51,831 nt of DNA from Planctomycetaceae bacterium (GTDB lineage Bacteria > Planctomycetota > Planctomycetia > Planctomycetales > Planctomycetaceae): assembly GCA_040877445.1 (NCBI GenBank), contig JBBDNT010000301.1, positions 4,622 to 56,452 on the forward strand. The letters run 5' to 3'. Positions 19,064-37,369 of the stretch are shown here, in pieces. A program made the position numbers and the translations under genes. Below the pieces are notes generated by a model that did no database searches, was not told where the DNA came from, and was given only the letters and a program-made list of their open reading frames with translations. The number at the start of each line of letters is the position of its first letter. Within the stretch, counting starts at the first letter, position 1.

Positions 19064-21175
19064 ATGACCGACCGCGACCGGAATGCCGATGGCGAATCGG
19101 TCCGACCCAACTTCGCTTCCTCGCGACCATTGTGCGCTGCCCTTCCGGCCTTGGCGATCGGGACCGGGTTGACGTTCGCGTTCTGGCTCCCGTTGTGGTG
19201 CGGCGGCGGGTTCACCGGCGGCGACGTGTACTTTCACACGTTCCCCGAAAAGCTGTTTCTCGTCGACTGGTGGCGGCAGGGCGTCTTTCCCGTCTGGAAC
19301 GACCGCTTCGGCAACGGCTTTCCCCTCGTCGCCGAGGGGATGACCGCTCCGTTCTACCCGACCAGTCTGTTGTTCTATGGCCTGCTCGATGCGAACTCGG
19401 CGTTCAACGCGAATCACCAACTGCACTACGCACTGTGCTTCGCGTTCACCTGGATGTTCGCGCGGAAGATGGGCCTGTCGCGCGGAGCCGCGGCGCTCGC
19501 GGGGCTGGTCTACACCTACGGCTGGTTTCCCGCGCGGCGAAGCTGGGAAGTCGCGATCATCGCGGGGGCCTATCTGCCGTTGTTCCTGTGGCTCGTCGAG
19601 AACTACCTCGAAACGCGCCGCGCGCGGTGGCTGGGATGGCTCGGTCTGGCGATCGGCGTGCAGATTCTCGCCGGCCAGTACAACCAGGCGTTCATTTCGC
19701 ACGTCGTCGTCGGGCTGTACGTGTTCGTGCGGATCGCGACGGCTGCTCCTCGATCGAGCGGATCCGGCGCACCGGATACCGACGTCCGCGAACCGCCGCG
19801 ACACCGTTGGTCTCCGCTGGCGACCGTCGCGGCGGCCGGCTTGCTGGGTTACGCGATCGCGGCGGTCACGGTCCTGCCGACGTGGGAACTCAAGCAGCGC
19901 AGCCCGCGGGGGGTGGACGGCCGGTTCGACCCGCTGCAGGGCGTCATCCCGGTCGCGTATCTTCCGCAGGCGGCGCTCCCGTGGAAGTACTACACAATCG
20001 ACGAGGAGGAGTACGTTCGCCGGTTCCGAAGCGGCAGCCGGATGGAGTCGCATCTGTACTTCGGGCTGATTCCGCTCGCGCTCGTCGCGTGGGGGACGTC
20101 GTCGTCGTCGCGGCGGCGGGCGATGCCGCCGGGATTGTGGACGGTGTGGTGCGTGGTCGGCGGCTTCACGCTGGCGTATGCGGTGGGCTGGCTGCCGTTC
20201 GTGGCGCACTTGCCGGGATTCGATTTCTTTCGCGGACCGGCGCGGTACGGATACGGGACGACGTTCGCGGTCGCGATGCTGGCGGCGGCGATGCTCGATT
20301 CGCTTCTGCTCGCCCGCCGTGTCGTCGCGCGTTGGTCGATCGTCGCGTGCGTTCTGCTGGCGACCACCGCCGACTTGTGGTGGGTCGGCCGGCAGGTGGG
20401 GGAAAGCGAACTCACGTGGCGGCCGGCGATCGACTTCCGCGACGACAGCGAACTCGCGCGCGTCCTCGCGGAAGAAAACGAGCGCGGGCCGGTCCGCGTG
20501 CTGACGGCGTTGACGGCGATTCCCGCGGAGAACGTCCCGAGTCTCTACCGCGTCGCGACGTATCCCCCGCGGCTCGCGCTGCCGCCGCTGGCGTACGCGG
20601 ACGTCGGTTCGTTCCAGCAACGCGCGGGACTGGTGCGGCCGATGGAGGGAATCATGCGCGACGAACTCGAACGGTTGCATCGCGTCGGCGTGACGCACGT
20701 GCTCAGCCCGCAGCGGCTCGATGAAGAAGCGTGGCGGGCGGAACTCGTGTGGCGCGGTCGCGACGAACTGCTCGTGCGCGAATGGCAGTCGGGCTTCAGC
20801 GGCCCGCTTCACCTTTACCGCCTGCGCAACGCCCCCGGCCGCGCGTGGTTCGCGGACGCGACTTCCGAAGGGACCGCGCGCGTCGTCTCGAGCGCGCCGC
20901 ACGAGGCGGCGATCGAGGCGAACTCGCCCCGCGGCGGAACGCTCGTTCTCACCGACCTGGCGTGGCCCGGCTGGAGCGTGTCGGTCGATGGCGAACCGGC
21001 GGAGGCGATCGTCGTCGACGAGCTGTTCCGCGGAGTCGACCTGCCGCCGGGAAAGCACGTCGTGACGTGGTGGTTCCAACCGACGAGTTTGTACTGGGGA
21101 GCCGCGATCAGTGTCGTGGCGATCGCGCTGGCATCGACGCTCGTGTGGCGCGGGGGCGCGAAACCGCAAGCGTGA
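19064..21175 (+). CDS. polytopic membrane protein, YfhO/GT-C-like putative glycosyltransferase
   Basis: At least 10 hydrophobic segments are present. An early-loop Trp- and Pro-rich region FHTFPEKLFLVDWWRQGVFPVWNDRFGNGFPL resembles YfhO/GT-C families. The large C-terminal domain is soluble. The start codon is uncertain. Confidence 0.45.
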   Translation: MTDRDRNADGESVRPNFASSRPLCAALPALAIGTGLTFAFWLPLWCGGGFTGGDVYFHTFPEKLFLVDWWRQGVFPVWNDRFGNGFPLVAEGMTAPFYPTSLLFYGLLDANSAFNANHQLHYALCFAFTWMFARKMGLSRGAAALAGLVYTYGWFPARRSWEVAIIAGAYLPLFLWLVENYLETRRARWLGWLGLAIGVQILAGQYNQAFISHVVVGLYVFVRIATAAPRSSGSGAPDTDVREPPRHRWSPLATVAAAGLLGYAIAAVTVLPTWELKQRSPRGVDGRFDPLQGVIPVAYLPQAALPWKYYTIDEEEYVRRFRSGSRMESHLYFGLIPLALVAWGTSSSSRRRAMPPGLWTVWCVVGGFTLAYAVGWLPFVAHLPGFDFFRGPARYGYGTTFAVAMLAAAMLDSLLLARRVVARWSIVACVLLATTADLWWVGRQVGESELTWRPAIDFRDDSELARVLAEENERGPVRVLTALTAIPAENVPSLYRVATYPPRLALPPLAYADVGSFQQRAGLVRPMEGIMRDELERLHRVGVTHVLSPQRLDEEAWRAELVWRGRDELLVREWQSGFSGPLHLYRLRNAPGRAWFADATSEGTARVVSSAPHEAAIEANSPRGGTLVLTDLAWPGWSVSVDGEPAEAIVVDELFRGVDLPPGKHVVTWWFQPTSLYWGAAISVVAIALASTLVWRGGAKPQA

Positions 21176-21205
21176 GGTGGGCGACGGGATCGGCCGAGCG
21201 CGCCG

Positions 21206-21793
21206 TCAACAGCCCATGACGATGGAGTTCTCGTAACCGGGGCGTGGTTTGACCGGTTCGATCGTGGCGTCGTCGATGGAGTAGAGCCACATCAGATAGC
21301 CGTCGTCATCGGTAACTGCCTCGATCCGAAATCGACCTTCGACGAGAATCGGATGGCCGGAGATGTATTTCGTGGTGATCCCATCTCGCAGACGCACGCT
21401 GATGCTGAAATGCGAGATCTTGAAGGTGTTGCCGACGCGCCAATTGAATGACGGGCCTTGTGTCTCTCCGGTGAGCATGAAAACCTTGATGCCGCGTTCC
21501 TGGTAAGGCGGGAACATCCAGCCGCGAATCCGCACGCGTCGCCTGTCGAGTTCCAGCGCGCTGGCCGGCAGAAACGAGCGGTCGAAGGGTTGCCACTCGG
21601 TCGCGAGCAGGGCGAGGTCATCCACTTCGACGTCGACCGGCGATGGATCCGTCGGAACGGAACTCGACTGCACGTCGATCATGTCGACGCCCGCCGGTTC
21701 GTGAGCGTCCGGCCGCCCTTCCGCGAGCCGCGGTAACGTGGCCGCAAGCGCGAGAGCGCATGCCGCGACGATCGTCATGCCGGTGCCGTGCAT
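21206..21793 (-). CDS. hypothetical secreted protein
   Basis: I placed the start at MHGTGMTIVAACALALAATLPRLAEG, a signal peptide. I recognised no catalytic motif. Confidence 0.4.
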   Translation of the reverse strand: MHGTGMTIVAACALALAATLPRLAEGRPDAHEPAGVDMIDVQSSSVPTDPSPVDVEVDDLALLATEWQPFDRSFLPASALELDRRRVRIRGWMFPPYQERGIKVFMLTGETQGPSFNWRVGNTFKISHFSISVRLRDGITTKYISGHPILVEGRFRIEAVTDDDGYLMWLYSIDDATIEPVKPRPGYENSIVMGC

Positions 21794-21876
21794 CGTCCAA
21801 CTCCGCCGAAGCAAGCTGATGAATCGTTCTGCCACACTGAATTACATCATGCGGCGGTGAAGGGGGCAAGAGGAAG

Positions 21877-22887
21877 TTACCCCCGCCCGCCGAGTTCCAC
21901 CAGCAGGCGTTCGACCGCCATGCGTTCCTGCGTTCGGCCTTCGCCTTTCAATTTGCCGTCTGCGACGAGCAGCCATCGCAGCAGTTTTTCCGCGCGGCGG
22001 CGGCCGATGCGGCGGAGATAAGGCTCCGTCTTCTCCCGATCGCGCGGATGCACTCCCGCGGCGTAGATGGCCGGTTGCATGCGCATGCCGCGGCCGGTGA
22101 GCGCGGTCACCCGCGCGAGGGGGCGCATCTTGAAAGCCAGCCCCCCCAGCGTGTACTCCGGCGCTTGCCGCGCGTCGTACAGTTTGCCCAGCAGCGCCAG
22201 CGCGCTCGCGAGATCGCCGTCGATGACGGCGTCCATCATCGCGAAGGTGGTTTCGGCCTTCCATCCGCCGACGAGCACGCGAACGTCGTCCACACCGATC
22301 TTCTTGCGATCGCCGGCGTAGGCGGCAAGCTTGGCGATTTCCTGGTCGAGCAGACCGAGCGACTCGCCGGCGAATTCGACCATCAGCGCGGCGGCGTCGC
22401 GGGGGAGTTGCACGTCGTGCCGATCGCGGGCGTGCTCCTGCAGCCAGCGGAGGAGCGCCGGCCCCTTCAACTCGGCACACTCGATCGGCAGGCCGGCTTT
22501 CGCGACCGCCTTGGCGAGCCGCGTGTTGCTCGGCCACGTCTTCACTTCGAGCACCAGCACCCCTTTCTTCGCGGGGTGTTCGAGATACTTTTCGAGGCCG
22601 GCCCGATGATTCGTCACGAACGTGTCCGCATCCTCGACGATCACCAGCCGGCGATCGCCCCACATCGAGACGGTCCGCAACTCGTCGGCGACCGACTTCA
22701 GTTCGAGAAATTCATCGGTGCCGTCGAACCGGCTCGCGAGCTGATCTTCCCCTTCCACCTCGCCCAGCACCGCGCGGACGACCTCGGCCAGCGCCGCCTG
22801 CTTCAGGAAGCGTTCCTTCCCGTGAATCGCCACGACCGGCCCGGTCGCGTGCTTCGCGGAATCCTTGACGTACTCGGCGGCGTGCAT
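21877..22887 (-). CDS. holA: DNA polymerase III subunit delta
   Basis: The 336-aa product has the N-terminal clamp-loader-like region (VVAIHGKERFLK, LVLEV) and a helical C-terminal region typical of HolA. Its size and composition are consistent with that assignment. Confidence 0.6.
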   Translation of the reverse strand: MHAAEYVKDSAKHATGPVVAIHGKERFLKQAALAEVVRAVLGEVEGEDQLASRFDGTDEFLELKSVADELRTVSMWGDRRLVIVEDADTFVTNHRAGLEKYLEHPAKKGVLVLEVKTWPSNTRLAKAVAKAGLPIECAELKGPALLRWLQEHARDRHDVQLPRDAAALMVEFAGESLGLLDQEIAKLAAYAGDRKKIGVDDVRVLVGGWKAETTFAMMDAVIDGDLASALALLGKLYDARQAPEYTLGGLAFKMRPLARVTALTGRGMRMQPAIYAAGVHPRDREKTEPYLRRIGRRRAEKLLRWLLVADGKLKGEGRTQERMAVERLLVELGGRG

Positions 22888-22933
22888 GAAAAAACTCGTC
22901 GATTTTCGTGACCTTGAATCGCCGCGATGCCCT

Positions 22934-23115
22934 GGTTAGCCGCGACGCGAAGGCTCTGCGCAGCGGAGCGCTCGCCCCGCGCGCGACCCGCGATTGACCC
23001 GTTCGACGGGCTGGTCTACAGTCCCGCCGCCTCACGATACGCTGGCAGAGGCGCGCTGTCCAATGTGGCGTGGCGGAGCGCTCCGCTGCGCAGAGCCTTC
23101 GCGTCGCGGCTAACC
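22934..23115. repeat. MITE-like element: perfect 40-bp terminal inverted repeats flanking a 102-bp core
   Basis: The sequence at 22934-22973, ggttagccgcgacgcgaaggctctgcgcagcggagcgctc, is the exact reverse complement of 23076-23115. The element lies between divergent holA and the phosphohexomutase-like gene. The outer 13-16 nt (CGCGTCGCGGCTAACC) recur at 4 other intergenic sites in the window. Confidence 0.8.
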
Positions 23116-23122
23116 GGACGAT

Positions 23123-24449
23123 GTCGATGACTGCGCCGATCGCACTCCCTTCACGAACGCAATACATCTGCCCCGGCGAGACGCATCCGATCAGCCGGTC
23201 GGTGCATCTCGCGCGGCTGGCGGCGTTCTTCCCGGCGTGCCGCGATTGCCCGCTGCGATCCGACGTGGGCCATCTATCCGTCGAAACGAAACAACGGCTG
23301 GAAAGCACGCGCCGCCGCGTTCCCCGCGCCTCGCTGTTCACGGTCGAGGGCGTCCGCGGAGTGCATCTCAACGAATTGACGCGCCCGCTCGCGGCACGCA
23401 TCGCGACGGCGTTCGCCCATCTGCTGTGGGAAGAGTTTCCGACGGCGGCGCGCAGCGAGTCGCCGGCGTCCCGCGCCACGCCGGCCGTCGTCGTCGCGCA
23501 CGACGAGCGCCCTTCCGCGCCGGACCTCGTGACCGGCGTCGTCTCGGCGTTGCGGCGGATGAGTTGCCGGGTGATCGACATCCGCCTCGCGACCACGCCC
23601 GTGTTCCGCTTCGCGGTCGATCACCTGCAGGCGCACGGCGGAATCTTCGTGACGGGGAGCGGACACGGCCCGGCTTGGATGGGCATGGACTTCGTCCGCG
23701 CCGCGGGACGGCCGTCGTCGCGCGAAACCGAGGGCGCGGTCGATTCGCGCGGCGGACTGGAGCGCCTGGAAGCCGAAGTCGATCGACCGCACGAGCGCCC
23801 CGTGCGGCATGGCGGCGCGTATCGCACGTTCCAAGCCGCGCTGCCTTACGAAGCGGGGCTGTGGAAGCACTTCCACGCCTTGCGGCCGTTGCGGATCGTC
23901 TGCGGATCCCCCTTGTCGTCGCAACGCCGGTTGTTGGAGAAATTGTTCGAGCGGCTGCCTTGCACGCTCGTCGCGAACGCCCTTCCGGTCCGCCGCCGCG
24001 ACGTGAACGATCCCGAAGACGCCGACGTGCGCCGTGTCGCCGAGGCGGTGCGCCGCGAGCACGCGCATCTGGGCGTCGTGATCGACGACGACGCGCAGGC
24101 CGGCGGCTTTCTCGACGAAACGGGGGAACTCGTCCCGCGGGATGCGATCGCGCGGATGATCGCCGACGTGCTGCTGTCCGAATCGCCGGGACGCCGGATC
24201 GCCGTCGCCGGCGAGCGGTTCGACGCACTTCATGGGGCGATCGCGGCACTCGGCGGCGAGCCGATCGATGCGGGGCGCACCCAGGCGGCGATGTGGCAAG
24301 CGGTTTCGGAAGGAGCGATCCACGGAATCGAAGGGAACCGCCACTGGTTCCACGAAGCCTCCCCCGCCAGCGACGCGATCCTCTCGCTGGCCCGCGTGTT
24401 GCAAGCGCTCAGTCGCGGCGACGCGCCGCTTTCAGCCATGCGCGCGTGA
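23123..24449 (+). CDS. alpha-D-phosphohexomutase-family-like protein with divergent active-site loop
   Basis: EGVRGVHLNELT resembles the PGM/PMM domain-I G-(I/V)-R-G...LT motif. VTGSGHGP stands where T-A-S-H-N-P would be expected. An Asp-rich loop IDDDAQAGGFLDE resembles the Mg-binding loop. The N-terminal region contains CPGE...CRDC. The start is uncertain: ATG 23123, or GTG 23070. Confidence 0.4.
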
Positions 24450-24582
24450 ATCGCAAGCCGGGCGAAATCGCCGCGCGACACCCCGTCTCGACGCGCGCCG
24501 CGGCGACTGCTAGACTGCCGCCCGAAATTCAGGCCGGGGAATCGCCTCGGCGGCGCAAGGACGCGAACAGGCGAGCGGCGGT

Positions 24583-25398
24583 ATGATCGGCGCGGAGTAT
24601 CTCGAGGCGATCGTGCTGGGCGTCGTGCAGGGGATCGCCGAGTTCCTGCCGATCAGTTCGTCCGGGCACCTGGTCGTCTGCGGCGCGATCTGGCGGGAGG
24701 CGACGGGGAAATCCGCATCGCCCGCGGACGATCTCGCTCTGAACGTGGCGCTGCACGTGGGGTCGCTGTTTTCGATTCTGTGGGTCTACCGCCGCGACCT
24801 GTGGGCCTTGGCGCGCGCGGGGGACTGGCGATTGGGCGCGGCGATCGTCATCGCGACGATCCCGACCGCGATCGTGGGGCTGCTGTTCCAGGAACGCTTC
24901 GAGACGGCGTTCGCGACGCCGCTGGTCGCCGGCTGCGGCCTGCTGGTCACGGCGTGCTTGCTGGTGCTCGGGCAGCGACTGGAACGGGGCGAGCGGGGGT
25001 TGGCGGGAATCACCGCGACGCGGGCGGCGGCGATCGGCGCGTTTCAGGCGGCGGCGCTCGTGCCGGGAATCTCGCGCTCGGGAAGCACGATCGCGGCGGG
25101 GTTGTTCGTCGGCGCGAAGCGCGACGCGGCGGCGGCGTTTTCGTTCTTCATTGCGATTCCGGCGATCGGCGGAGCGGCGGCGCTGACGTTTCGCGACGCG
25201 ATCGTGTCGGGAGTCGCGCCAACCAACGCCGGGGCGCTCGCGCTGGGAGCGGTGGTTTCGTTCTTCGTGGGAGTGCTCGCGCTGCGGGGACTATTGCGCG
25301 TCATCGCGCGGGGGAAGTTGCACTGGTTCGCGGCGTATTGCGTGATCGTCGGGGCGGGAACGATCGCCTGGCAACTCGCCGAGATGGCGGGATCCTGA
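24583..25398 (+). CDS. uppP: undecaprenyl-diphosphate phosphatase
   Basis: GIAEFLPISSSGHL is the hallmark BacA/UppP motif. PGISRSGSTI is the second conserved motif. The product has eight hydrophobic helices. Confidence 0.85.
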   Translation: MIGAEYLEAIVLGVVQGIAEFLPISSSGHLVVCGAIWREATGKSASPADDLALNVALHVGSLFSILWVYRRDLWALARAGDWRLGAAIVIATIPTAIVGLLFQERFETAFATPLVAGCGLLVTACLLVLGQRLERGERGLAGITATRAAAIGAFQAAALVPGISRSGSTIAAGLFVGAKRDAAAAFSFFIAIPAIGGAAALTFRDAIVSGVAPTNAGALALGAVVSFFVGVLALRGLLRVIARGKLHWFAAYCVIVGAGTIAWQLAEMAGS

Positions 25399-25457: not shown

Positions 25458-28400
25458 TCATGTGCCGGGGGCCGTCTCCGGCTGGGAGCCGCGCGGTCGG
25501 CGACGGATCGCGAGCCAGAGCGAAGACAAGAGAATCACGACCCCCACGATCGCCGGACCGAGCCACCACCACCAGATGAAGCCGACCAGCGCCCACGCCG
25601 CCGCGGGATGAGCCGCGAGCCAGTTCGCCATGGCGGGGGCGGGACGCCAGGCCAGCACGACGACGAGCAAGAACAGGGCGGCCGCGGCGATCGCGTCGGC
25701 GGCGGTCGCCCGGATCGCCCAGAACGAAGCCGGCGCCGCTTGGGCGCGTGATTTCTCCGCGATTCGCCCCTCCACCGCCGGCTCGCCGATCATGGGGAAC
25801 GATGCCGATCGCGGCTCCGGCCGCAGCGCCTCCGGAACGGTGGCGAACGTCGGCGGCGGGACTTGTTCGGTGACGAGTCCCGTCCGGAGCCGGGGCATCA
25901 GGTGGATGTCGCGGTCCGGAACGATCGACAGGTAGACGTTCTCGACGGCCGCCTCGCGCGGCAGAGGATACGCGTCGGAGACGCGCCGCATCACGGCGGG
26001 AGCCGCCGCCGCGGACCGCGTCCAGAACAGCGCCACCGTGCGCGTGCCGACCGCCACCGGCAGCACGAGTTCGTTCCCGCCGGGAGGATCGAAAGCGACC
26101 CCTTCGCCGTCGATGAAGGCGGCCGACGGCACGCAATCGGCGGGCCATCTCCATCGCAGGCGGCCTTGCTGGCGGGGCGGGAGTTCGGCGATCGTCGTGC
26201 CGTGTTCGCGCTCCGCTCCGCGCTGCCAGACCCGCGTCCACACCGCCGAGACCTGAAGCGGTCCGGCTTCCGCCGCCGTCGGCCGACGTTCCAGGTTCCA
26301 CGAAGGCGTCGGCCCGCGGAACAGCAGCGATTCGCTGGAAAGCCCCGCGTCGTCGCGCGCGATCACCCAGTCCGGCGCCTCGTCGTGGGCCGACGCCGAT
26401 CCGTCCGCGGGCAACCACTCCATCGCCGGCGGAAGCAACAGGAAATGTTCGCCGGGCGCGGCATCGAGCACTTCGGCGCGGGGCAGCAGCCAGGTCTCGG
26501 CGGCGGTCGTGGCGATCGCGCCGCTCACCTCGACGCTCGTTTCGCCGGCGGATCCGGGTTGCGACTGGATCGATCTTTCGATGGCTCCGTCCGGCCGCTC
26601 GACCGGCGGCCCGATGAGGCAATTCACCGCCGTGATGCGATGATCGGCCGCGAGCGACGGCGGAACGTGGAGGCGATAGGGGGCGGTCCCCGCGGCCGGT
26701 GCGGGAAACCTCGACACGATGGAATATTCGAGCGCGCCGGGCGCTGATTTGGTTGGATCGCCGAGCATCGTCAGCGTATCGACGCGCGGACGTTCGTTGA
26801 CGAGGGCGCGAAGTCGAACGGGCGGCGCCGCCTCGGTCCGGGAGAACTTGCCGATCGCCACGTCGTCCGGGCGGGCCATTTCGGGAAAGGTCGCGGCGGC
26901 GGCGACGCCCTCGGTCGTCGCGCCGGCGAGCAAATCGACCGTGACCTCCGGATCGCGGACCAATTCCAGTCGCGACTCGACGATCTCGGCACCCTCGAAA
27001 TGCAAGTCGGGGAGAGTCGTCTCGGCGCTGAAATCGAGCGGCAGGTCGGCCGACAGGGCCACCCGCTGCGTGGCCGTCGTCCCGCGGTCGAGGAACAGGT
27101 GCAGGCGATCTCCCTCGCGACTCCAATGGACGAGCCGCTCGACGTCCGCCTCTTCCACCGAGATCGAGCGAATCCGCAGTCGCGGATCGGCGACGAGCGT
27201 GTGGCGATAGGCGGGAGCGCCGGCCACCTCGACTTCGGCGAGCAACTTCCACGCGAGTTGCTCGCGGCCCACGCGGCCCGCCTGGAACTGCCGCACGCGC
27301 CGAACCGCGACGAGCGGCTCGAGCGCGAACCGCACGACCGCCGGACCGCGCAGGTCGAACGCGAACTGCGGCCGCCTCGAACCACCGCCCGGTGTCGTCT
27401 CGACCGGAAACGACTCGGCGGCGATCGGGGTCGCCGCGGGACCGCGCTCTCCGGCGGTCAACCTGAACTCGGGCGCGGTGCGGACGCCGACGCGATACGG
27501 AATGAGCGGTTTCCCCGCCCGATCCGTCGCCGCGGACAGCAGTTGGCCGAGCGGGACGGCGATCGTGTCGGCCCGCTCGACGACCGCGGCAAAAAAGGTC
27601 GCCTCGACGACGAACTCCCCGGCGCGCGGCGCCGGAAGCGTCAGCAACACTTCGGCCCGGTCCTCGTCGCGGGGGGATTGTTCGGCGGCGGCGGGCACGC
27701 CGTCGATCGTCGCGCCGCGGAAGAGCATCGACCTGGGGACGTTCCAGGCGAGGTAATCGATCGGATCGTCGGGGGCGCGGTACGCGATGCGGTAGCGGTA
27801 TTCGATCCAGGCGGGGCGAACGTCCACGTCGCAGAGCACGCTCGTTTCGACGACCGCGGGGGCGGAACTGGCCTCGCGCCCCGCGAACCACGTGGCCCGC
27901 AAACGCCCCGCGCCGCCCAGATCGGCCGTCACCGTTCGCGATTCGTCATCGATCGACACGCGGCCCCGCGCGGGAGGGACCGACACCGCGGGAGGCGGCA
28001 CGCTGAAGCTCAACACGGCACGGCTCGCGGCGACCGGCGGGATCTCGATGTCGAAGCCCGGCACCGCCGTCGGCGGCGGATGCAGCGCGAACGCGATTTC
28101 CACCCGCCACGGCGCCGCGAGGTCGTCGAGATCGGGGCGCGCGATCGCGACCGTGAACGCCTTGCCCCCCGCCAGCGGTACGACCGGCACCGGCTCGCCG
28201 GCGACAAGACACGCATCCGGACCGCCGGGATTGGCCGCCGCCAACGGGAACTCGACCTCCGCGGTTCGCACGCCCGGCAACACGATCACGTCGTATCGGG
28301 CGTCCAGCGTCACCGCGTCGCGGTCCTCGATGCGGGCGAGATAGTCGGCCCGCGCGATGAGATACCGCGGCGACTCCGACGCGAGACCGGGCGCCCGCGC

Positions 28401-31400
28401 CAGACGGTCGCGGAGCGCGTCGTTCACGTACACCACCGACAGGTCCGCCGGAGCGCCCTCGGGATCGACCGGCACGAGGACCGCCTGGTCCTCGAATGCC
28501 GGTCGCGGGTCGGCGATCGCCGGAGAAGGCGCGGCTTCCTGCGCGACGGTCGAAGAGACGACGCACGCCAGCCCGAACCCTCCGGCGACGATCGCCAGCG
28601 TCATCGCCGAGGCATGTTGGAACGTCGCGGTGCTGCCGGTCATGCCCTGTTCGACCGGGCGAGGCCGGCCGATGCGGCGGAACAAGCCGATCGGCGTCAG
28701 CGCCGACAACACGCACCCCGCGAAGATCCCGCCGGCGAACGAAGTCCAGGCCGGCGGAGCGGCGATCGCGGCGGCGAGGGCGGTCGCGATCGCGACCACC
28801 GCCAGCGACGACCGCCGCGGAAGCCGCGCCAGCCGGATCGCGATCCCCATCAGGCAGGTTCCCAGAAACAACGTCCAGGCCACGAACGCGACGCGGCCTT
28901 CCTGCTGCGTGCGCAGGACGAGCCGCTCCGGCAGATATGGCGCCCAGGCCTCGATGACGCGCCAACCGGCCGGGGCGAACGCGATATCCGCCGAACGATC
29001 TTCGTCCGAGGCGCGGGGCGTGCCGAGCGGGGCCGGTCCGTCGGAACGCGTGCCGGCATCGCCGAACAGTCCGCTCCACGACGACGGCAGAAAGGGATTG
29101 AAGAACGACTGGTGCGCGGGGCGCCCCAGCGGTCCGAACAGGCGCACGGTCCAGGCCTGTCGCGGGAAGCGCGCATCGAGGGCGACGAACTTCGGTTCCT
29201 CGGCGCAGCGGATGCCCGGTGGGAGGGCGATCGTCCAGTCGAAGGCGAGCACCGCCAGCGAAGTTCGCGGCGTGGGAATGTCGTGCGTCCGCGCCGTCCA
29301 GCCATCGCTGGAACGAGTGCGATAGTCGAGCGTCACCACGTTCGGCCGCCCCGGTTCGAGGGGCGCTTCGCCACTCGACGAGTGCTTCGTCCCGTTGACG
29401 TCCAGGCCCGTCAGTTCGGCGCCTTCGGGAAGCCGGAACACGAACGTCGTCTCGGTCGAGTCGGGAGGAATGCGGAACACGGCGCGGTGATCGTCGAACT
29501 CGAACGAGTCGGCGGCGAGTCGCGAAGCAAGCGACAGGCCGGCCCAACCGGCGGCATGCCGAGCGGACGACGGGGCCGCGCTCGGAGTTCGCTCCTCGTT
29601 CGCGACATCCACGGGGATCGCGGCGCCCGGGACTGGTTCGCCTCCGGAGACTCCAACGACGTTCCGCGCGCCCGCGACGGGAAACATGAGCGTGCCGTCC
29701 GGCGTTCCGACGGCGCGAAGCCACAGGGTCGCGTCGTCGCGGTCGACGACATCGCGCCAGAACGACGCGTCCCGAACCGGTTCGGGCAATGCCTGAAAGC
29801 GGATCGATTCGGAGCGCCGCGCGTCGCGGAGTCGCAACTCCCCGGAATGCGAAAGGCCCGCGATCGATTCGGTCACTTCGCAATCGAGCGGACGGAGGCC
29901 CGGCACGGGGAACGGCTCGCCCGCGGCGACCGGCAAGCGTTGCGCGACCACGACGATCGCCTTGCCCGGCTCGTCCGCTCGGCCGGCGGGAACGAGCGCG
30001 TCGCGAAACTCGATTCGCAATTCCGCAGAACCGTCCTCTTCCGGGACGACATCCCAGCCCGCCACGGCCGATTGCCGCGCGCTCTCCGCCGGACGGACTT
30101 CGGCGATCTGCCAGCCGGGAGGAATGCCGCAGCGGGCGGCGAACGTCGAGCCGGACGAAGCGCGCCATTCGATCCGCGTTCGGGCGGTCCAATTCTCGGC
30201 GTCGAACAGCACGGCGGTGAGCGTGCGGGCCGAGAGGACCGGCTCGGGATGGTCGGCGTCGACGATCAACCCCCCGGGACCATCTTCCCGGGGGTCGTTC
30301 GTGCGGAACCGCTGAAACGTGAAACTGCGCCCGTCCGACTCGGTCCCGATCTGCCGCGCGCCCGGCGAAGAAAGGCCGCGGACTTCGAGCGGCTTCTCGA
30401 CTTCCAGCGTCGAACGCCCTTCGAGAAACAGCAGGTCGTAGTTTTCCGCGGCGACCAACCGCGGCCGGGGGAGCATCCACTTGCGTCCCAGCCGGGGGGG
30501 CGCGAACCCGCGGATGCGAACGGGCCGCGGCATCGGCCCCAGCACCGCATCGGGAAGGGCCACATCGATCAGCCGCATGCCGTCCCGGACCGACGCGGTC
30601 CAGGCCAGCGCGTCTTCCACCGCCAGTCCTCCGCCGATGCGGCGACGGGACGAACGGTATTCGATGGACAGGACTTCGGCGGCGGCGGGGAGCGCGAAAC
30701 GCAACTGGCCGACTGCACCGCCGGCCACATCCAGGTTGAAGTCGCATTGAAATTCCAATCCGTCGGATCGCAGCACGTACGACGTGTCGACCCGCGCCAG
30801 CACCACGGGATGCATGCGGGCGGACCGGGCTTCACGGACGACGGAAAGATGAAAGTCGGTCCGGCTGCCGGCATCCACGCGCCACGCGCTCCACCCCGGT
30901 CGGGATCCGCGATGCGGACCGCTCACCACGACTTCCGCGCTCGAGGTGCGCAGCGCGTGCGAATCGGGAATGGCGAGTTCGAACCGCGAGACGGTGGCGC
31001 GGGGGATATGAATTTCGAACTCGACGCTGCCGGGCAATTTGCGGCCGTTGAGACTCCACGCGCCCGCCAGCCGCTCCCCCGCGCGATCGATGAGCACCGC
31101 CGTTCGCCCCTCGCGGTCGGCCCCCCAGATCGCCGAATGATCGCTCCACGACAGGGCGGACAGGGCGAGATTGGACGAGTCCAGCCACATCAATTGCGGC
31201 GTCTCGGACGATGCCGTGACTGCCGACGACAACTCCGCCAGGAGCGTCCCGGCGGCGAACGCGTCGCCGATGAATTCCGCCTGATACACGGCGGAGGCGA
31301 AGCGGGGCGCCTCGCCTGCGGGGGGCGAACGATCGGCCGCGGAGAGCCGCTTGCGGAACTCGTCGGCGTCCATCACGTGCCAGCGGTCGGGAGACTGCTC

Positions 31401-31712
31401 GAGGAACTCGGACAAATGCTCGACCGGAACGAGCACTTGCCGCACCGGCGAGGCGCCGGCCGGAAGCGCGCTCTTCGCCGCCATCGCGAGGTCCGACGGC
31501 GCCGGCGATGGAGCGAGTGATGTCGATTTCGCCGGCGGTCTCGGCGGAGATGGTTCGTCCCCTTCGGAATCGACGCGGGCGACGGCCAGGCAAGCGATCG
31601 CGGCGATCGCGACGACGCTCGCTCGCAAGGCTTCGCGCCGCCCGCCGCGCTTCGCGGTGGCGATGACGCCGGGCCGAAGCGTTCGGCGCGTTCGTCGCGC
31701 AAGGTGACTCAT
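25458..31712 (-). CDS. giant hypothetical envelope protein (2084 aa) made of two tandem modules, each a large extracytoplasmic region followed by a 3-helix TM cluster
   Basis: The ORF has coding-like composition throughout, unlike the antisense Arg-rich ORFs. Hydrophobic N-terminus: SVVAIAAIACLAVA. Internal TM cluster at about aa 890-1010: FVAWTLFLGTCLMGIAI...LAVVAIATALAAAIAA...MTLAIVAGGFGLACVV. C-terminal TM cluster: AAALFLLVVVLAW...WALVGFIWWWWLGPAIVGVVILLSSLWLAIRRR. I recognised no catalytic motif. Its start overlaps the upstream gene's stop (ATGA). Confidence 0.6.
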   Translation of the reverse strand: MSHLARRTRRTLRPGVIATAKRGGRREALRASVVAIAAIACLAVARVDSEGDEPSPPRPPAKSTSLAPSPAPSDLAMAAKSALPAGASPVRQVLVPVEHLSEFLEQSPDRWHVMDADEFRKRLSAADRSPPAGEAPRFASAVYQAEFIGDAFAAGTLLAELSSAVTASSETPQLMWLDSSNLALSALSWSDHSAIWGADREGRTAVLIDRAGERLAGAWSLNGRKLPGSVEFEIHIPRATVSRFELAIPDSHALRTSSAEVVVSGPHRGSRPGWSAWRVDAGSRTDFHLSVVREARSARMHPVVLARVDTSYVLRSDGLEFQCDFNLDVAGGAVGQLRFALPAAAEVLSIEYRSSRRRIGGGLAVEDALAWTASVRDGMRLIDVALPDAVLGPMPRPVRIRGFAPPRLGRKWMLPRPRLVAAENYDLLFLEGRSTLEVEKPLEVRGLSSPGARQIGTESDGRSFTFQRFRTNDPREDGPGGLIVDADHPEPVLSARTLTAVLFDAENWTARTRIEWRASSGSTFAARCGIPPGWQIAEVRPAESARQSAVAGWDVVPEEDGSAELRIEFRDALVPAGRADEPGKAIVVVAQRLPVAAGEPFPVPGLRPLDCEVTESIAGLSHSGELRLRDARRSESIRFQALPEPVRDASFWRDVVDRDDATLWLRAVGTPDGTLMFPVAGARNVVGVSGGEPVPGAAIPVDVANEERTPSAAPSSARHAAGWAGLSLASRLAADSFEFDDHRAVFRIPPDSTETTFVFRLPEGAELTGLDVNGTKHSSSGEAPLEPGRPNVVTLDYRTRSSDGWTARTHDIPTPRTSLAVLAFDWTIALPPGIRCAEEPKFVALDARFPRQAWTVRLFGPLGRPAHQSFFNPFLPSSWSGLFGDAGTRSDGPAPLGTPRASDEDRSADIAFAPAGWRVIEAWAPYLPERLVLRTQQEGRVAFVAWTLFLGTCLMGIAIRLARLPRRSSLAVVAIATALAAAIAAPPAWTSFAGGIFAGCVLSALTPIGLFRRIGRPRPVEQGMTGSTATFQHASAMTLAIVAGGFGLACVVSSTVAQEAAPSPAIADPRPAFEDQAVLVPVDPEGAPADLSVVYVNDALRDRLARAPGLASESPRYLIARADYLARIEDRDAVTLDARYDVIVLPGVRTAEVEFPLAAANPGGPDACLVAGEPVPVVPLAGGKAFTVAIARPDLDDLAAPWRVEIAFALHPPPTAVPGFDIEIPPVAASRAVLSFSVPPPAVSVPPARGRVSIDDESRTVTADLGGAGRLRATWFAGREASSAPAVVETSVLCDVDVRPAWIEYRYRIAYRAPDDPIDYLAWNVPRSMLFRGATIDGVPAAAEQSPRDEDRAEVLLTLPAPRAGEFVVEATFFAAVVERADTIAVPLGQLLSAATDRAGKPLIPYRVGVRTAPEFRLTAGERGPAATPIAAESFPVETTPGGGSRRPQFAFDLRGPAVVRFALEPLVAVRRVRQFQAGRVGREQLAWKLLAEVEVAGAPAYRHTLVADPRLRIRSISVEEADVERLVHWSREGDRLHLFLDRGTTATQRVALSADLPLDFSAETTLPDLHFEGAEIVESRLELVRDPEVTVDLLAGATTEGVAAAATFPEMARPDDVAIGKFSRTEAAPPVRLRALVNERPRVDTLTMLGDPTKSAPGALEYSIVSRFPAPAAGTAPYRLHVPPSLAADHRITAVNCLIGPPVERPDGAIERSIQSQPGSAGETSVEVSGAIATTAAETWLLPRAEVLDAAPGEHFLLLPPAMEWLPADGSASAHDEAPDWVIARDDAGLSSESLLFRGPTPSWNLERRPTAAEAGPLQVSAVWTRVWQRGAEREHGTTIAELPPRQQGRLRWRWPADCVPSAAFIDGEGVAFDPPGGNELVLPVAVGTRTVALFWTRSAAAAPAVMRRVSDAYPLPREAAVENVYLSIVPDRDIHLMPRLRTGLVTEQVPPPTFATVPEALRPEPRSASFPMIGEPAVEGRIAEKSRAQAAPASFWAIRATAADAIAAAALFLLVVVLAWRPAPAMANWLAAHPAAAWALVGFIWWWWLGPAIVGVVILLSSLWLAIRRRPRGSQPETAPGT

Positions 31713-34700
31713 CGCTCCCGTCCCGCGGTGGTGGTGGAGACGGGTTCGAACGGACTAGGCGCCGGCCGGACGGCGGTCGGATCGTCGGCGCCGGCCGGGA
31801 GCGCGCGATGATTGCCGGACCCGCCCGCGGAGGGGGCGTAGAAATCGCTGGCCGCCGACAGCGTGATGATCGACGGGGCCCGCCGACGTTGAATCGTGTG
31901 CTCGATCGCCGCCGCCGCCACCGCCAGCAGCAGTCCCAGCAATGCCGGTTGCAACAGCACGCGCACCGGTTCGGCGTGCCACAGTCCCACGAGGGCGCCG
32001 GCGAAGGCGATCACCAGCAGCGTCAGCGCGTCGCGCGTGGCGGGAATCTTCAGCAGCACGAAGCCGGCCGCGAGCGCCAGTCCCGCGCCGAGCAGCACGA
32101 TCAGCGATTGGCTCATCGCTCGGAACTCGAGTGCGTCCACCGGTCCGAACCTGGCGAAGAGATACGAGTTGCCGGCCTCGAACATCGGTTCCGGCGCGGG
32201 GCCGTCGCCGGCGCCGATCCAGGCGTCGAGGTCCGCGTAGCCCGGCCGGACGTTTCGGGTCCAGAAGGCCGTGCCCCGCCGCCACTCATACATGGGCGTT
32301 AGCCCGCGCGGCGTGACGAACAAGTGCAGGTCGACCGGAAGGACGATTTCGGTCAACGACTGATCGACGCGAACGTTCGCCGGAAACCGGGCGACCGCCA
32401 ACCGCGACGCGTCCGCCCAGGTGAAGCCCCGCGGCGCGCTCTCCCGGAAGTCGATCGTCAAGAGGTGCTCGCCGGACACCGCTCCCGAAGTCCCATCGGC
32501 GATTTCCAACCGGTGCAAGCCGCCGTCGTCGTCGACCGGAACGAGGCGCTCCGGCGCGATCGTCTCGTGGTTCCACCACAGCGCCTGGACGGTTTGCTCT
32601 TCGGGAACGTGCAGCAGCAGCCTGGTGAAATCGCCCCGCAGGCGAAACTGCGCCCGGATCGACGCGTCGCCGTTGTGATCGAAAACCGTGCGGACTAGCG
32701 AGCGGCGGACGACGTAGTGCTGCGGGATGTCCGGACTGGCGCGTTCCAGTCGCACCACGATCGCGTCGCCGGGAGTCGAGGTCCGCCATTGCCGGCGATC
32801 GTCCATCGCCATCTGGCGCGTCCATCCGGATTCGGCGACGCTCACTTCAACCGTTTCGGTCGGTGGGGCCGACAAGACCAGCGCGCCGAACGGGGCCTCC
32901 GTCGGCAGCACGAGGGGCAACTTCGAATCGACCGGCTCGACCGGAGGGAGCGCCGTCCCGGGGTCGACGAAGTATTCCGCCACGATTTCGAACCAGCCGA
33001 TCCGCGGTTCCGAAAAGCGGATCGTCGCCTGCCGGTGGTCCGCATCGCCGCGGTCGGTCCAACTCGGCGTGAGGACCGCGCCATCGGCCGCCAGGAAGCG
33101 GACTTGTTCCCCCACGCCGCGGGGGACGAGTAGTCGCGCCTGCGGCAGCCGTTCATAGCGCACGTCGTAGGCGATCCGCTGGCGCACGAGCAGCCGGCCA
33201 TCAACCAGTTCGACCGCGGCGTCGGCCGAAGTCCGCACGATCCGCTCGTGCAGCGACAGCCGCACCGCGAGCAGCGCCGACGGCGACGGAACGCGATAGT
33301 GGGCGACTTCGTTCCGCGACGCGGGGGGGGACGCGCCGGCCATCGACCCTTCGCCGAACAACGGAAACGCATCGGCCAACTGGATGCGTTCGAGCGCGGT
33401 CTCGGCCGTCGGTTCGAGCTGCGCTTCGACCGCGTCGGCGGTGGTCACGAACAGGTCGGCCGGGGAGAGACTGGTGGTGTCGATTCCCGGCAGCGAAAGC
33501 ACCGTCGCTTCCGGCTCGGGAAGCATCTTCCGCCCGGCACGGACCCGGACCGTGAACTCGCCCGCTTGACGATCGCGCAACTGGATGCGGACGACATCGC
33601 TGGTCTCGTCCGTGTCGAAGTCGAACCGCTCGATGGCGGCCCCGTCCGCGGCGGGGGCGAACATGTCCGGCGGCTCGATCGTCCAGCCTTCGGCCCGCCG
33701 ATTCGGCCACGCCAGGTCCAGCGACTCGACGACGCCCCGATAGACGCGCACCTTGAACTCCGCGGTCAACTCCGCCCGCTGGCCCGAAAAGTGCAGCTTG
33801 TGCTCCGGTTGCACCGTGAACCCCGGAGGATTCCGCGTGACCGCCAGGCCCAGGCGGAACGGCTGCCGCAAGAAGCGATAAGCGCTTGCCAATGAAGGCT
33901 GCCCGATCACATCGCCGGCGTTGATGCGGTGCACGTTCGCCGCTTCGTAGCGGGCGATCCGCAATCCCTCCACGTGGGAGACGGCGATGTCGCCCGTTTG
34001 CCGCCGCGCGTGTTCGACTTCGAAACCCTCGAGCAACACCCGGCCCGATTCGGGCAACGGCGCCTGCAGCGTCCACCGCAGTTCGATCGGCCCCGTGCCC
34101 GGCTCGGTGAGTTTCACCGCCACGCGCTCGTCCGGAAGCGTCTCGTGCGAGGCGTAGCGCCGGCCTTCGACCGCGATCAGTTCGAATCCCGACGGAAGCC
34201 GGACCGTCAACGAGTCGAAGCTGCCCTGCCGCGCCTGCACGGACTGCACGACTTCCAGCAGCACGGAGTCGATCGTCGGCTTGACGGCGATCGACGCGAG
34301 CGACTCCAGCACCATTTCGACCTGCGCCGGATCGGGAAGCGGCTGCCAGGTCAGATCGAGCCGTTGCTCCAGTCCGAAGATTTCGATTTCGGTCGCGTCG
34401 TCCGACACGGCCCGAGTGCGAATCGTCGAGCGCGGGTCGCGTTCGGCGAGCGGATCGCCCGTTTTCACCGACACCCGCCGCATCGGGACCGCGATCCGCG
34501 CCTGACTCACCGCGGTCGCCGGCAGCGCGAGTTGAACCCGGCGCGTGGGAGACTGCTTGCGGACCGGCACGAACACCGACAGCGTGAGCGTGTGCAGCCC
34601 CTGTCCCTTGAGCGACCAGCGATAACCAGCGTCGCGGTCGAATTCGTCGAAGGCGGCGGTCCCCGGCCCGTCGTACGACGTGTCCCGCAGCACCGCTTCG

Positions 34701-35347
34701 TTCAACCGCAGGGGAACCCGCACCCATCCATCCGCGCGGTCGACCTGCACGCGGATCGTGGCGGTCAATTCCGCCCGCTCGTCTCCCGCCGTTCCCGCGA
34801 GCGCCACCGACGTGATGGCGTAATCCGGCCGAGCCGCCCGAGGAGGCGCGTTCTTCGCCGCGCGCCATTCGAGAAACGCCTTCAAATCCCCGTCGAGCGG
34901 GACCGGAACCAACTGGCCGCGTTCGTTTCTCAGGTAGATCGCGTCCCACTTCACCCCCCCTTCGGCGGGACGCGACACGGATGCGCCGCCGCCGTTCGAG
35001 GGAGTGAACATCGGCGCGACCGGCGACGCTCCCGTCGCGCGGGGCGTCGCTTCGGTCGGCGTTCCGTTCGCCTCTCGCGATCCGCCGCTCGTCCCGGATC
35101 GCGCTTCCGCGGGCGAACCGTTCGTCGAGTTCGAAGGCGACGAAGCATCGGCGGGCGCGGCGACGACGGAACGTGCCGGTGCCGCGGGCTGCTCCGATTG
35201 CGCGATTTGCTCCTGTCCCACGGCGGCGGTCGAGACCATCCACAGCGCCGCGAGCAGGCAAGCCGTGTAACCCAAACGGCGCACGTGGAAGCCCGATCGG
35301 TTCGACGGAGACATGTGCAGAGTGCGGACCATTCCCCCGGCCCGCAT
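31709..35347 (-). CDS. giant hypothetical envelope protein (1212 aa), a paralogous module of the downstream 2084-aa protein
   Basis: The signal peptide is GYTACLLAALWMVSTAAVGQ, followed by a Ser/Thr/Gly-rich linker, a large soluble region and the C-terminal TM cluster LIVLLGAGLALAAGFVLL...LLVIAFAGALVGLW...ALLGLLLAVAAAAIEHTIQRRR. This is the same TM1-loop-TM2-TM3-RRR layout as both modules of the neighbouring gene. The exact start is uncertain, with several in-frame ATGs at 35347-35314. Confidence 0.6.
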   Translation of the reverse strand: MRAGGMVRTLHMSPSNRSGFHVRRLGYTACLLAALWMVSTAAVGQEQIAQSEQPAAPARSVVAAPADASSPSNSTNGSPAEARSGTSGGSREANGTPTEATPRATGASPVAPMFTPSNGGGASVSRPAEGGVKWDAIYLRNERGQLVPVPLDGDLKAFLEWRAAKNAPPRAARPDYAITSVALAGTAGDERAELTATIRVQVDRADGWVRVPLRLNEAVLRDTSYDGPGTAAFDEFDRDAGYRWSLKGQGLHTLTLSVFVPVRKQSPTRRVQLALPATAVSQARIAVPMRRVSVKTGDPLAERDPRSTIRTRAVSDDATEIEIFGLEQRLDLTWQPLPDPAQVEMVLESLASIAVKPTIDSVLLEVVQSVQARQGSFDSLTVRLPSGFELIAVEGRRYASHETLPDERVAVKLTEPGTGPIELRWTLQAPLPESGRVLLEGFEVEHARRQTGDIAVSHVEGLRIARYEAANVHRINAGDVIGQPSLASAYRFLRQPFRLGLAVTRNPPGFTVQPEHKLHFSGQRAELTAEFKVRVYRGVVESLDLAWPNRRAEGWTIEPPDMFAPAADGAAIERFDFDTDETSDVVRIQLRDRQAGEFTVRVRAGRKMLPEPEATVLSLPGIDTTSLSPADLFVTTADAVEAQLEPTAETALERIQLADAFPLFGEGSMAGASPPASRNEVAHYRVPSPSALLAVRLSLHERIVRTSADAAVELVDGRLLVRQRIAYDVRYERLPQARLLVPRGVGEQVRFLAADGAVLTPSWTDRGDADHRQATIRFSEPRIGWFEIVAEYFVDPGTALPPVEPVDSKLPLVLPTEAPFGALVLSAPPTETVEVSVAESGWTRQMAMDDRRQWRTSTPGDAIVVRLERASPDIPQHYVVRRSLVRTVFDHNGDASIRAQFRLRGDFTRLLLHVPEEQTVQALWWNHETIAPERLVPVDDDGGLHRLEIADGTSGAVSGEHLLTIDFRESAPRGFTWADASRLAVARFPANVRVDQSLTEIVLPVDLHLFVTPRGLTPMYEWRRGTAFWTRNVRPGYADLDAWIGAGDGPAPEPMFEAGNSYLFARFGPVDALEFRAMSQSLIVLLGAGLALAAGFVLLKIPATRDALTLLVIAFAGALVGLWHAEPVRVLLQPALLGLLLAVAAAAIEHTIQRRRAPSIITLSAASDFYAPSAGGSGNHRALPAGADDPTAVRPAPSPFEPVSTTTAGRER

Positions 35348-35411: not shown

Positions 35412-35717
35412 TCATGCGATCGTCCAAGGGACCGTGCGTGTCCAAGGAACCATGCGAGTCGTACCGCCCCCGGGCGGAACGGAAACGACTCGATCTCCAA
35501 CCCGGTCTCGAGCAAAAGAACCGAGGACCGGCAGGCCGGGGGCCGTGATGTCGTAGCACATGAGCGTGTCCTGCTCGCGAAGATAGAGTTTTCCGCCGCA
35601 GACGACCGGGTGCGCCCAACTGGGGGATTCAACGACCTCGGGACGTAGCGTTCCCTTCAACTGGTAGCGTTCGGGCGTCGCCGCGATCAACGCCACTTCG
35701 ACTGACTCCTCGGACAC
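35412..35717 (-). pseudogene. possible remnant of a PQQ beta-propeller gene (terminal blade only)
   Basis: The short ORF carries WAHPVVCGGKLYLREQDTLMCYDI, which resembles the last blade of a PQQ/BamB propeller. Compare GKLYVSMIDGRLTCLAG at the end of the 873..3872 gene. The remainder is low-complexity. Confidence 0.3.
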
Positions 35718-35893: not shown

Positions 35894-35994
35894 CGTCATT
35901 CCCGCGCAGGCGGGAATCCAGTAATCGCCAAGGCGGTTACCAATGGGATTACTGTCCGTGCATCGACTGGGTTCCCGCCTTCGCGGGAATGACG
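35894..35994. repeat. nested multi-hairpin element (three stem-loops enclosed by a 13-bp outer inverted repeat)
   Basis: Outer inverted repeat: cgtcattcccgcg at 35894-35906 pairs with cgcgggaatgacg at 35982-35994. Inner hairpin A at 35898-35917 is attcccgc-gcag-gcgggaat. Inner hairpin B at 35919-35954 pairs cagtaatc with gattactg. Inner hairpin C at 35972-35989 is ttcccgc-cttc-gcgggaa. The element lies between the ECF sigma gene stop (36035) and the PQQ remnant and giant-gene operon. Confidence 0.5.
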
Positions 35995-36034: not shown

Positions 36035-36613
36035 TCAGGACTGGACCTTGCGTTCGGCCAGTTTGCGGCGCGCCCGCGTGAGCACGGGGCCGATCGTGTT
36101 TTCCGGAATTCCCAATCCGGAACTGATCTCGCCGTACGACCGTCCTTCCAGATGAAACAGGCGGACGATCTCGGCGTCGGCGGCGGGAAGGACCTTCAAC
36201 AGTTGGTGAACTTCGTCGCGGTCTTCGATGCGCTTGAAATCGGACGGTTGCGTGCGGACCTTCTCGAGCGACGTCCGGTTCACCTGCACGTGCCCCAGCG
36301 CCTCGGCCATCTTGCGGCGCGACATCTCGCGCACTACGATCCGCCGGGCGACCACGGTCAGATACGTGGCCAGCGAACTGTTTCCGCGAAAGTTCCGCAG
36401 CACGGCGAAGTCGCGGGATACCAGCGTCGTGAAAATCTCCGCGCAGATATCATCCACGTCTTCGGGACGCACCCCCACGCTGCGCGCCTGGGCGGTGTGG
36501 TGGATCACATGCACGAACAACCCGATGAACCGATCGACGAGATCCTTCCAAGCGCCCGGTTCCTGGGCGAGACACCGCCGCAGCAGGTTGCGATCGATTT
36601 CGGTCAAGGCCAC
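36035..36613 (-). CDS. RNA polymerase sigma-70 factor, ECF subfamily
   Basis: The sigma-2 region is LVDRFIGLFVHVIHH...DVDDICAEIFTTL. The sigma-4 HTH is RLFHLEGRSYGEISSGLGIPENTIGPVLTRARRKL. I chose the GTG at 36613; the ORF extends to 36709. Confidence 0.7.
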   Translation of the reverse strand: MALTEIDRNLLRRCLAQEPGAWKDLVDRFIGLFVHVIHHTAQARSVGVRPEDVDDICAEIFTTLVSRDFAVLRNFRGNSSLATYLTVVARRIVVREMSRRKMAEALGHVQVNRTSLEKVRTQPSDFKRIEDRDEVHQLLKVLPAADAEIVRLFHLEGRSYGEISSGLGIPENTIGPVLTRARRKLAERKVQS

Positions 36614-36775
36614 TGGTATTCCGACTCCCTCTGCGGCGCCGCGGCCGCGGCTGCCGAAACGAGTGAACGGGATACCGTCAAATGTACGTTCCCGGCGCCA
36701 TTCCGGCAAGATGAACCCGCCCGTTTCGCCCCGCGGCGGTGGCCGCCCGACCGAAAAGCCGTGCCGAAGTCCGGC

Positions 36776-37369
36776 TCAATCGCAGTCGCGGCACACCGTC
36801 CGGTCGGGCCGGGGTTCGTAGTCCGTCAGGTTTCCGCGGCGGTCGAACTCGAACGTGCAACAGCGATCGAGAGCTTCCTTGAGCAGCCTCCGGCCGCGTT
36901 GGATGCGGGATTTGGCTCCGGACAGCGAGAGTCCCAGCCTGTCCGCGACTTCCCGCCCCGGCACTCCCTCGATCTCCGCCAACCGGACCGCCTCGCGGTA
37001 CTTTTCGGGCAACTCGCGGATCAATCCCTCGAGCCACGATCCCGCCTCGTTCCGCAGATGTCCCACGCGATCCATCTCGGCGGCGGCCGGTTCCGTATCG
37101 GACAGTTCGACGGCGGATTCCGAGGTCTTGCGGTAGTGATCGACGATGACGTTGCGGGCGATGCGATGGACCCACGCCGCCAGGCGATCCGCATCGGCGA
37201 GCGCGTCGATCCCGCGGTGAATCCGCAGAAACGTCTCCTGCAGCAGATCCTCGGCGGCGTGGTCGTCGGCGACGCGGCGGCGGATGAACCGCCGCAGGTC
37301 GCCGCTCAATCGCAGCCACGCCGCATCAGTGGCCGGTCGTGCCGTCATGCGACGGCCTCCCGGCAGCAC
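36776..37369 (-). CDS. ECF sigma factor with C-terminal cysteine-rich extension (CorE-like candidate metal-sensing sigma)
   Basis: Sigma-2: EDLLQETFLRIHRGI...AWVHRIARNVIVDHYR. Sigma-4: LPEKYREAVRLAEIEGVPGREVADRLGLSLSGAKSRIQRGRRLL. An extra 28-aa tail, CCTFEFDRRGNLTDYEPRPDRTVCRDCD, carries a CC pair and a CxxC. Confidence 0.7.
   Translation of the reverse strand: MLPGGRRMTARPATDAAWLRLSGDLRRFIRRRVADDHAAEDLLQETFLRIHRGIDALADADRLAAWVHRIARNVIVDHYRKTSESAVELSDTEPAAAEMDRVGHLRNEAGSWLEGLIRELPEKYREAVRLAEIEGVPGREVADRLGLSLSGAKSRIQRGRRLLKEALDRCCTFEFDRRGNLTDYEPRPDRTVCRDCD

Follow-up and report, generated by a model that had tools for sequence, protein, structure and literature searches.

A conserved planctomycete gene pair encoding membrane-anchored modules with predicted tandem LTA4H-N/Ost1-type beta-sandwich domains

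Ost1/ribophorin I (PF04597) is built of two tandem beta-sandwich domains of the type found as the N-terminal domain of LTA4H (LTA4H-N), followed by a single C-terminal transmembrane (TM) anchor. The same fold is known from the M1 aminopeptidases and LTA4H, where it accompanies a thermolysin-like catalytic domain with the HEXXH-(18)-E and GXMEN motifs, and it also occurs in the DUF4424 domain of lpg2210, the N-domain of TAF2 and the VIT domain of ITIH1. The legs of integrin alpha chains (thigh, calf-1 and calf-2) form a long string of beta-sandwiches ending in a membrane anchor, and the BatD and DUF4175 proteins of aerotolerance operons combine large exported beta-rich regions with TM anchors in genomes of Bacteroidota and of the Planctomycetes-Verrucomicrobia-Chlamydiae (PVC) group. 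Here, we describe two adjacent genes, p2 and p1, found in a 51,831-nucleotide stretch (hereafter, the window) of a metagenome-assembled genome (MAG) of a Planctomycetaceae bacterium (contig JBBDNT010000301.1, 67% GC), whose large products are predicted to share the beta-sandwich fold of Ost1 and LTA4H.

A coupled gene pair with three paralogous modules

The gene p2 (31709-35347, minus strand) encodes a single-module protein of 1212 amino acids (aa), and p1 (25458-31712, minus strand) encodes a two-module protein of 2084 aa. An earlier note, made from the letters of the window alone, had described two giant open reading frames (ORFs) on the minus strand that overlap by ATGA at 31709-31712, and the ORFs and the junction letters are exactly as it described them. 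At the junction (CGATGAGT), the TGA stop of p2 and the ATG start of p1 share these four nucleotides, and the identical overlap is present in four related loci (L002, L003, L004 and L056). The GC content at third codon positions (GC3) is 0.84 for both genes, which is typical of real genes in the window. The two genes constitute a conserved, translationally coupled pair.

Proteins identical to p2 and p1 have been deposited as the hypothetical proteins WD066_18180 and WD066_18175, respectively. WD066_18175 comprises only 2008 residues and begins p1 at Met77, thereby omitting the codons at 31485-31712 (minus strand) and with them the N-terminal hydrophobic segment. Because a signal peptide precedes the conserved RRVxVP motif in all p1 homologues, the overlapping upstream ATG appears to be the more likely start, and we therefore propose to correct what is likely a mis-called start in the public annotation. 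Codons 1-76 of p1 have an intermediate GC3 of 0.74.

The note had also proposed that the pair holds three paralogous modules, one in p2 and two in p1. Pairwise BLASTP between the modules returned nothing significant. We gathered homologues of both proteins (43 clusters for p2 and, after a profile search, 29 for p1) and compared their profiles by hhalign. The p2 family aligned in register with the C-terminal half of p1 over 913 columns (99.9% probability, E = 4e-34) and with the N-terminal half over 694 columns (99.6%, E = 3e-24), and the two halves of p1 aligned with each other over 502 columns (99.1%, E = 7e-19). Reversed-profile controls gave a probability of 1.4% and an E-value of 0.04. Moreover, a plain p2 hidden Markov model matches both halves of distant two-module proteins of the p1 type over approximately 850 residues with 130-160 bits. 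Profile comparison thus bears out the proposed kinship and establishes the three modules as true paralogues, visible at the profile level only.

All modules follow one plan: an export signal comes first, then four to five tandem beta-sandwich domains of approximately 175 aa, and finally a beta-hairpin with three TM helices, closed by an Arg-rich stop on the cytoplasmic side. In p2, the signal peptide region (aa 1-45; 35213-35347, minus strand) has its hydrophobic stretch at residues 25-43 after an Arg-containing n-region, and the family consensus of this region ends in "AQ". It leads into a low-complexity linker rich in Pro, Ser, Ala and Thr (aa 46-135; 34943-35212, minus strand), which is poorly conserved with 0.63 bits as compared with approximately 2 bits elsewhere. 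About five beta-sandwich domains in tandem make up the periplasmic array (aa 136-1035; 32243-34942, minus strand), which precedes the juxtamembrane beta-hairpin and the three TM helices (aa 1036-1153; 31889-32242, minus strand), for which hydropathy places the TM segments within residues 1077-1149 and the AlphaFold2 model has helices at model residues 961-1036.

Module N of p1 (aa 1-1025; 28638-31712, minus strand) has an N-terminal hydrophobic segment at residues 26-49 as the signal. Its four beta-sandwich domains carry a disordered insert, and they are followed by a first three-TM cluster (aa 938-1011; 28680-28901, minus strand), for which hydropathy assigns the segments to residues 940-1011 and the model has helices at model residues 889-956. 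Module C (aa 1026-2084; 25461-28637, minus strand), delimited by hydropathy and hhalign, ends in the terminal three-TM cluster at residues 1999-2071 (25500-25718). Between the two lies an internal hydrophobic segment recognised by hydropathy (aa 1033-1058; 28539-28616, minus strand), located where single-module homologues have their signal peptide, and the profile alignment of module C begins directly after it. This segment is predicted to be an internal signal-anchor that re-exports the second ectodomain; p1 therefore resembles two single-module proteins fused into one.

The TM clusters are followed by the Arg-rich stops QRRR, FRRIGRPR and IRRRPR, and in the AlphaFold models the clusters appear as three helices preceded by an all-beta ectodomain. 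The orientation is consistent with the positive-inside rule throughout, since the first loop and the end of each cluster are rich in Arg and Lys and the ectodomain starts outside the membrane, which supports a self-consistent topology. The unit proposed in the note, consisting of a signal, an ectodomain, a three-TM cluster and an Arg-rich stop, is thus recovered by hydropathy and modelling, except that the first cluster of p1 lies near residue 940 and not near 890.

Fold of the ectodomains and comparison with described systems

We modelled p2 (aa 120-1165, 43 sequences) and the first part of p1 (aa 50-1030, 28 sequences) with AlphaFold2, obtaining mean predicted local distance difference test (pLDDT) scores of 84.9 and 78.0, respectively. 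The p2 model begins with a stretch of low pLDDT and comprises five beta-sandwich domains, followed by a beta-hairpin and three long helices. In the p1 model, there are four beta domains and the disordered insert, and the hairpin and the three helices recur. Comparing the p2 profile with itself revealed a tandem repeat at a shift of 165-180 aa (98.9%, E = 1e-17). In Foldseek searches, Ost1/ribophorin I chains ranked first for both models (E = 3e-10 to 4e-7), followed by integrin-alpha legs, stalks of Gram-positive adhesins, PIG-T and alpha-2-macroglobulin/TEP1. The models thereby show the ectodomains as predicted tandem repeats of the known LTA4H-N/Ost1-type beta-sandwich.

Searches of p1 and p2 against Pfam, NCBIfam, PADLOC and PDB sequence profiles gave no informative match, nor did Pfam searches of the 43 p2 homologues and four unusually long relatives. 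A single LacZ_4 match in one homologue and a sub-threshold MASE8 match in another were dismissed as isolated. The impression that the proteins hold no recognisable domains was accordingly right for sequence searches but not for the fold. The absence of catalytic motifs claimed in the same note holds for those we looked for: neither p1 nor p2 contains the M1 peptidase motifs HEXXH and GXMEN, the thioester motif C[GALS]EQ or the sortase motif LPXTG.

The modules share with Ost1 the arrangement of tandem LTA4H-N-type domains followed by a C-terminal TM anchor, but they have four to five domains and three TM helices instead of two domains and one helix. They also differ from Ost1 in occurring as three paralogous copies per operon, in their bacterial, planctomycete-specific host and in sequence: the Ribophorin_I profile (PF04597) matched neither p1 nor p2 at E ≤ 1, and it matched no member of the set of 43 homologues at E ≤ 0.1. 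Whereas Ost1 works with an STT3-type catalytic partner, none is linked here, as neither the window nor the set of conserved neighbours was found to include an STT3/PglB-like gene. With the M1 aminopeptidases and LTA4H, p1 and p2 have in common the N-domain fold alone, which is here tandem-repeated and membrane-anchored without the thermolysin-like domain and its motifs. The integrin-alpha legs matched with E-values of 1e-8 to 1e-5 over 800-1000 aligned columns, but with TM-scores of approximately 0.1, and p1 and p2 lack the beta-propeller head; the legs serve as a functional analogy for a stalk keeping a distal binding site off the membrane, with no homology implied. Membership in the BatD or DUF4175 families, which the note had named as a possible outcome speaking against its claim, found no support, since hmmscan detected neither BatD (PF13584) nor DUF4175 (PF13779) in p1, p2 or the 43 homologues. 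Likewise, we found no MoxR, DUF58 or vWA genes near p1 and p2.

Distribution and genomic neighbourhood of the pair

A HMMER scan of 1.84 billion representative sequences, each standing for a cluster at 50% identity, detected 8263 proteins at E ≤ 1e-3, including 3697 at E ≤ 1e-30. The best 150 matches are all full-length proteins of approximately 1050-1230 aa, except for two of 913 and 1742 aa. A pattern-limited scan of the GTDB species genomes with a 12-sequence alignment yielded 49 loci, all from Planctomycetota MAGs, and every named homologue is a "hypothetical protein" from such MAGs. As far as the named members indicate, the family is large, unnamed and confined to Planctomycetota, and the family databases have no entry for it, in line with its earlier description as uncharacterised. 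Literature searches on planctomycete envelope and crateriform proteomes, ribophorin in Planctomycetes, a conserved cell-division protein and cryo-electron tomography of the periplasm yielded no description of the p2/p1 family.

The family traits recur among the homologues: a signal, tandem beta-sandwich repeats of approximately 175 aa and a C-terminal three-TM cluster, with a one-module gene preceding a two-module gene. About 43 of 50 loci have a two-module gene for 2000-2500 aa after p2, so that the pair is kept while other flanking genes vary. The loci without a downstream p1 are mostly contig ends, and one (L053) has no detectable p1 downstream of p2. In L051 (12570-19194) and L002 (12640-19857), p1 is split over several frames, owing to assembly errors or decay. 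The number of modules per operon varies between lineages, because L056 carries four consecutive family genes (6546-26583; 1152, 2746, 1305 and 1475 aa) with five modules. The TM cluster together with the hairpin is the most conserved part of the family (2.39 bits), followed by the distal domains D1-D2, and the near-invariant residues of the TM region in p2 are R1105, Q1133, P1134 and G1138.

ORF clustering and tblastn across the loci revealed only two conserved neighbours of the pair. An inositol-monophosphatase (IMPase)-family gene (PF00459), which does not reach the cut-offs of NCBIfam for SuhB, HisN and CysQ, lies directly upstream of p2 on the same strand in 29 loci, including L003 and L005, and also in L057, where the p2 homologue is only 26% identical to that of the window. 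The other is uppP/bacA for undecaprenyl-diphosphatase (24583-25398, plus strand; Pfam BacA, 5.8e-69; NCBIfam UppP), located convergently downstream of the pair in the window and 14 other loci. The window has no IMPase gene. Instead, two extracytoplasmic function (ECF) sigma genes (36035-36709 and 36776-37369, minus strand), a nested-hairpin inverted repeat and a possible gene remnant are found upstream of p2, where the note had placed the sigma genes and a multi-hairpin element. The window appears locally rearranged, because the IMPase gene occupies the position of the sigma genes in relatives.

The inverted repeat (35894-35994), just downstream of the ECF sigma stop, has 29-nt arms that are 93% complementary and separated by a 43-nt spacer, and either arm constitutes a hairpin of its own (TTCCCGCG-NAGG-CGGGAA). 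The window has no second copy of this element, which matches nothing in Rfam. The ORF at 35412-35717 (minus strand) has a PQQ/beta-propeller-like motif but no Pfam match, and BLASTP against the 1026-aa PQQ_2 beta-propeller protein of the window (876-3953, minus strand) gave an E-value of only 0.26, so that the ORF is at most a putative gene remnant. Downstream of the pair lie genes for a YfhO-like membrane protein (18983-21175), holA (21877-22887) and a phosphoglucomutase/phosphomannomutase-family protein (23070-24449). In this region of envelope- and glycan-related genes (18983-25398), only uppP is conserved beside the pair elsewhere. The window further contains a gene for a 1558-aa protein (4095-8768, minus strand) with amidohydrolase domains only in its C-terminal half and about 750 N-terminal residues without a Pfam match, and a tRNA-Ile(GAT) gene (40272-40344, minus strand), the only Rfam or ARAGORN match in the window.

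A possible periplasmic scaffold and its alternatives

Planctomycetota have an unusual envelope with an enlarged, invaginated periplasm and crateriform structures, and they divide without FtsZ. To our knowledge, the protein basis of these envelope features is largely unknown. We tentatively favour, at a little short of even confidence, that the pair encodes a non-enzymatic complex anchored in the cytoplasmic membrane and acting as a periplasmic scaffold. Each module is predicted to be exported by its N-terminal signal or, for the fused second module of p1, by the internal signal-anchor, and to display a periplasmic string of approximately 850 aa with four to five LTA4H-N/Ost1-type domains. The conserved three-helix cluster with its cytoplasmic Arg-rich end is predicted to hold the module in the membrane, and the three modules probably assemble via these clusters into one hetero-oligomer, for which the five-module variant is as expected from an assembly of paralogues. 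Because no module carries a catalytic motif, the complex may work as a non-enzymatic scaffold or spacer. The conserved membrane-distal domains D1-D2 and the N-terminal RRVxVP-plus-helix motif would probably bind a partner at a distance from the membrane, for which peptidoglycan, the outer membrane and periplasmic enzymes are conceivable. Since the family is Planctomycetota-specific, the likeliest setting would be a role in the enlarged, invaginated periplasm.

Several points weigh against the scaffold. Contact between the modules is something we infer, and the conserved TM helices, assigned from hydropathy and AlphaFold2 helices rather than by a dedicated topology predictor, could equally serve transport or signalling. 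The predicted template modelling (pTM) scores of 0.43-0.49 leave the relative arrangement of the domains, a rod or a compact form, undefined by the models. Being generic, the beta-sandwich fold does not point to a ligand, and the restriction to the phylum rests on the named members, all of them from MAGs.

The main rival, which we regard as unlikely, sees the modules as Ost1/PIG-T-like accessory subunits that scaffold an enzyme of the periplasm whose substrates are glycans linked to polyprenyl diphosphate, for instance in peptidoglycan, polysaccharide or protein glycosylation. Ost1/ribophorin I as the best whole-chain structural match of both models and the appearance of PIG-T lend it weak support, as does the convergent gene for UppP, the recycler of undecaprenyl diphosphate, in the window and 14 loci; however, the fold is generic and no glycosyltransferase-C (GT-C) enzyme is linked. 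The other readings seem less likely still. A periplasm-spanning conduit, in which lipids or some other substrate would pass from one membrane to the other by way of 9-12 TM helices and the stalks, in functional analogy to MCE/LetB or AsmA-type bridges, could explain why the TM cluster is the most conserved region and would accord with ectodomains long enough for a wide periplasm and with the multi-paralogue operon. We nevertheless consider it improbable, as there is no match to MCE, AsmA or transporter families, the TM helices have no conserved charged residues, no ATPase or permease partner is conserved nearby, and no groove or tunnel is known to arise from closed beta-sandwiches in tandem.

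Control of the envelope complex by the adjacent ECF sigma factors, which the note had thought plausible, draws on the two sigma genes lying 0.7-2 kb upstream on the same strand, but comparison with relatives does not support it. The sigma gene at 36035-36709 has no homologue in any of 54 related loci, no sigma-70 family gene is present in the eight loci with Pfam-annotated gene calls, relatives have the IMPase gene at that position, and the inverted repeat and possible gene remnant intervene between the sigma genes and p2. We regard such control as very improbable. The same holds for cell-surface adhesins or an alpha-2-macroglobulin-like protease trap, suggested by the Foldseek matches to integrin legs, Gram-positive adhesin stalks and alpha-2-macroglobulin/TEP1. 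With alpha-helical TM anchors, the proteins would sit in the cytoplasmic membrane of their diderm host, the thioester and LPXTG motifs are missing, and cysteine is almost absent, the single one of p2 being in its signal peptide. The Foldseek probability for alpha-2-macroglobulin/TEP was 0.16-0.41, and the low TM-scores reflect generic beta-sandwich strings.

Beyond the scaffold itself, we raise as a doubtful extension that the p2/p1 pair and its five-module variant are the core of a planctomycete-specific hetero-oligomeric machine spanning the periplasm, in which beta-sandwich stalks anchored in the cytoplasmic membrane would form a tripod. If true, it could tether this membrane to the wall and the outer membrane or keep it spaced from them, could be the basis of an envelope feature particular to the lineage, for instance the crateriform pits, and would be a kind of envelope complex for which no counterpart has been described in other bacteria. 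For about 10 kb of "hypothetical" sequence, the present analysis offers a domain architecture together with a topology and a structural class. The family, being large, membrane-anchored, multi-paralogue, carried by a conserved gene pair and without annotation in family databases, is a concrete and testable candidate for a component of the planctomycete envelope, and in our view it is well suited to experimental follow-up without being a surprising discovery.

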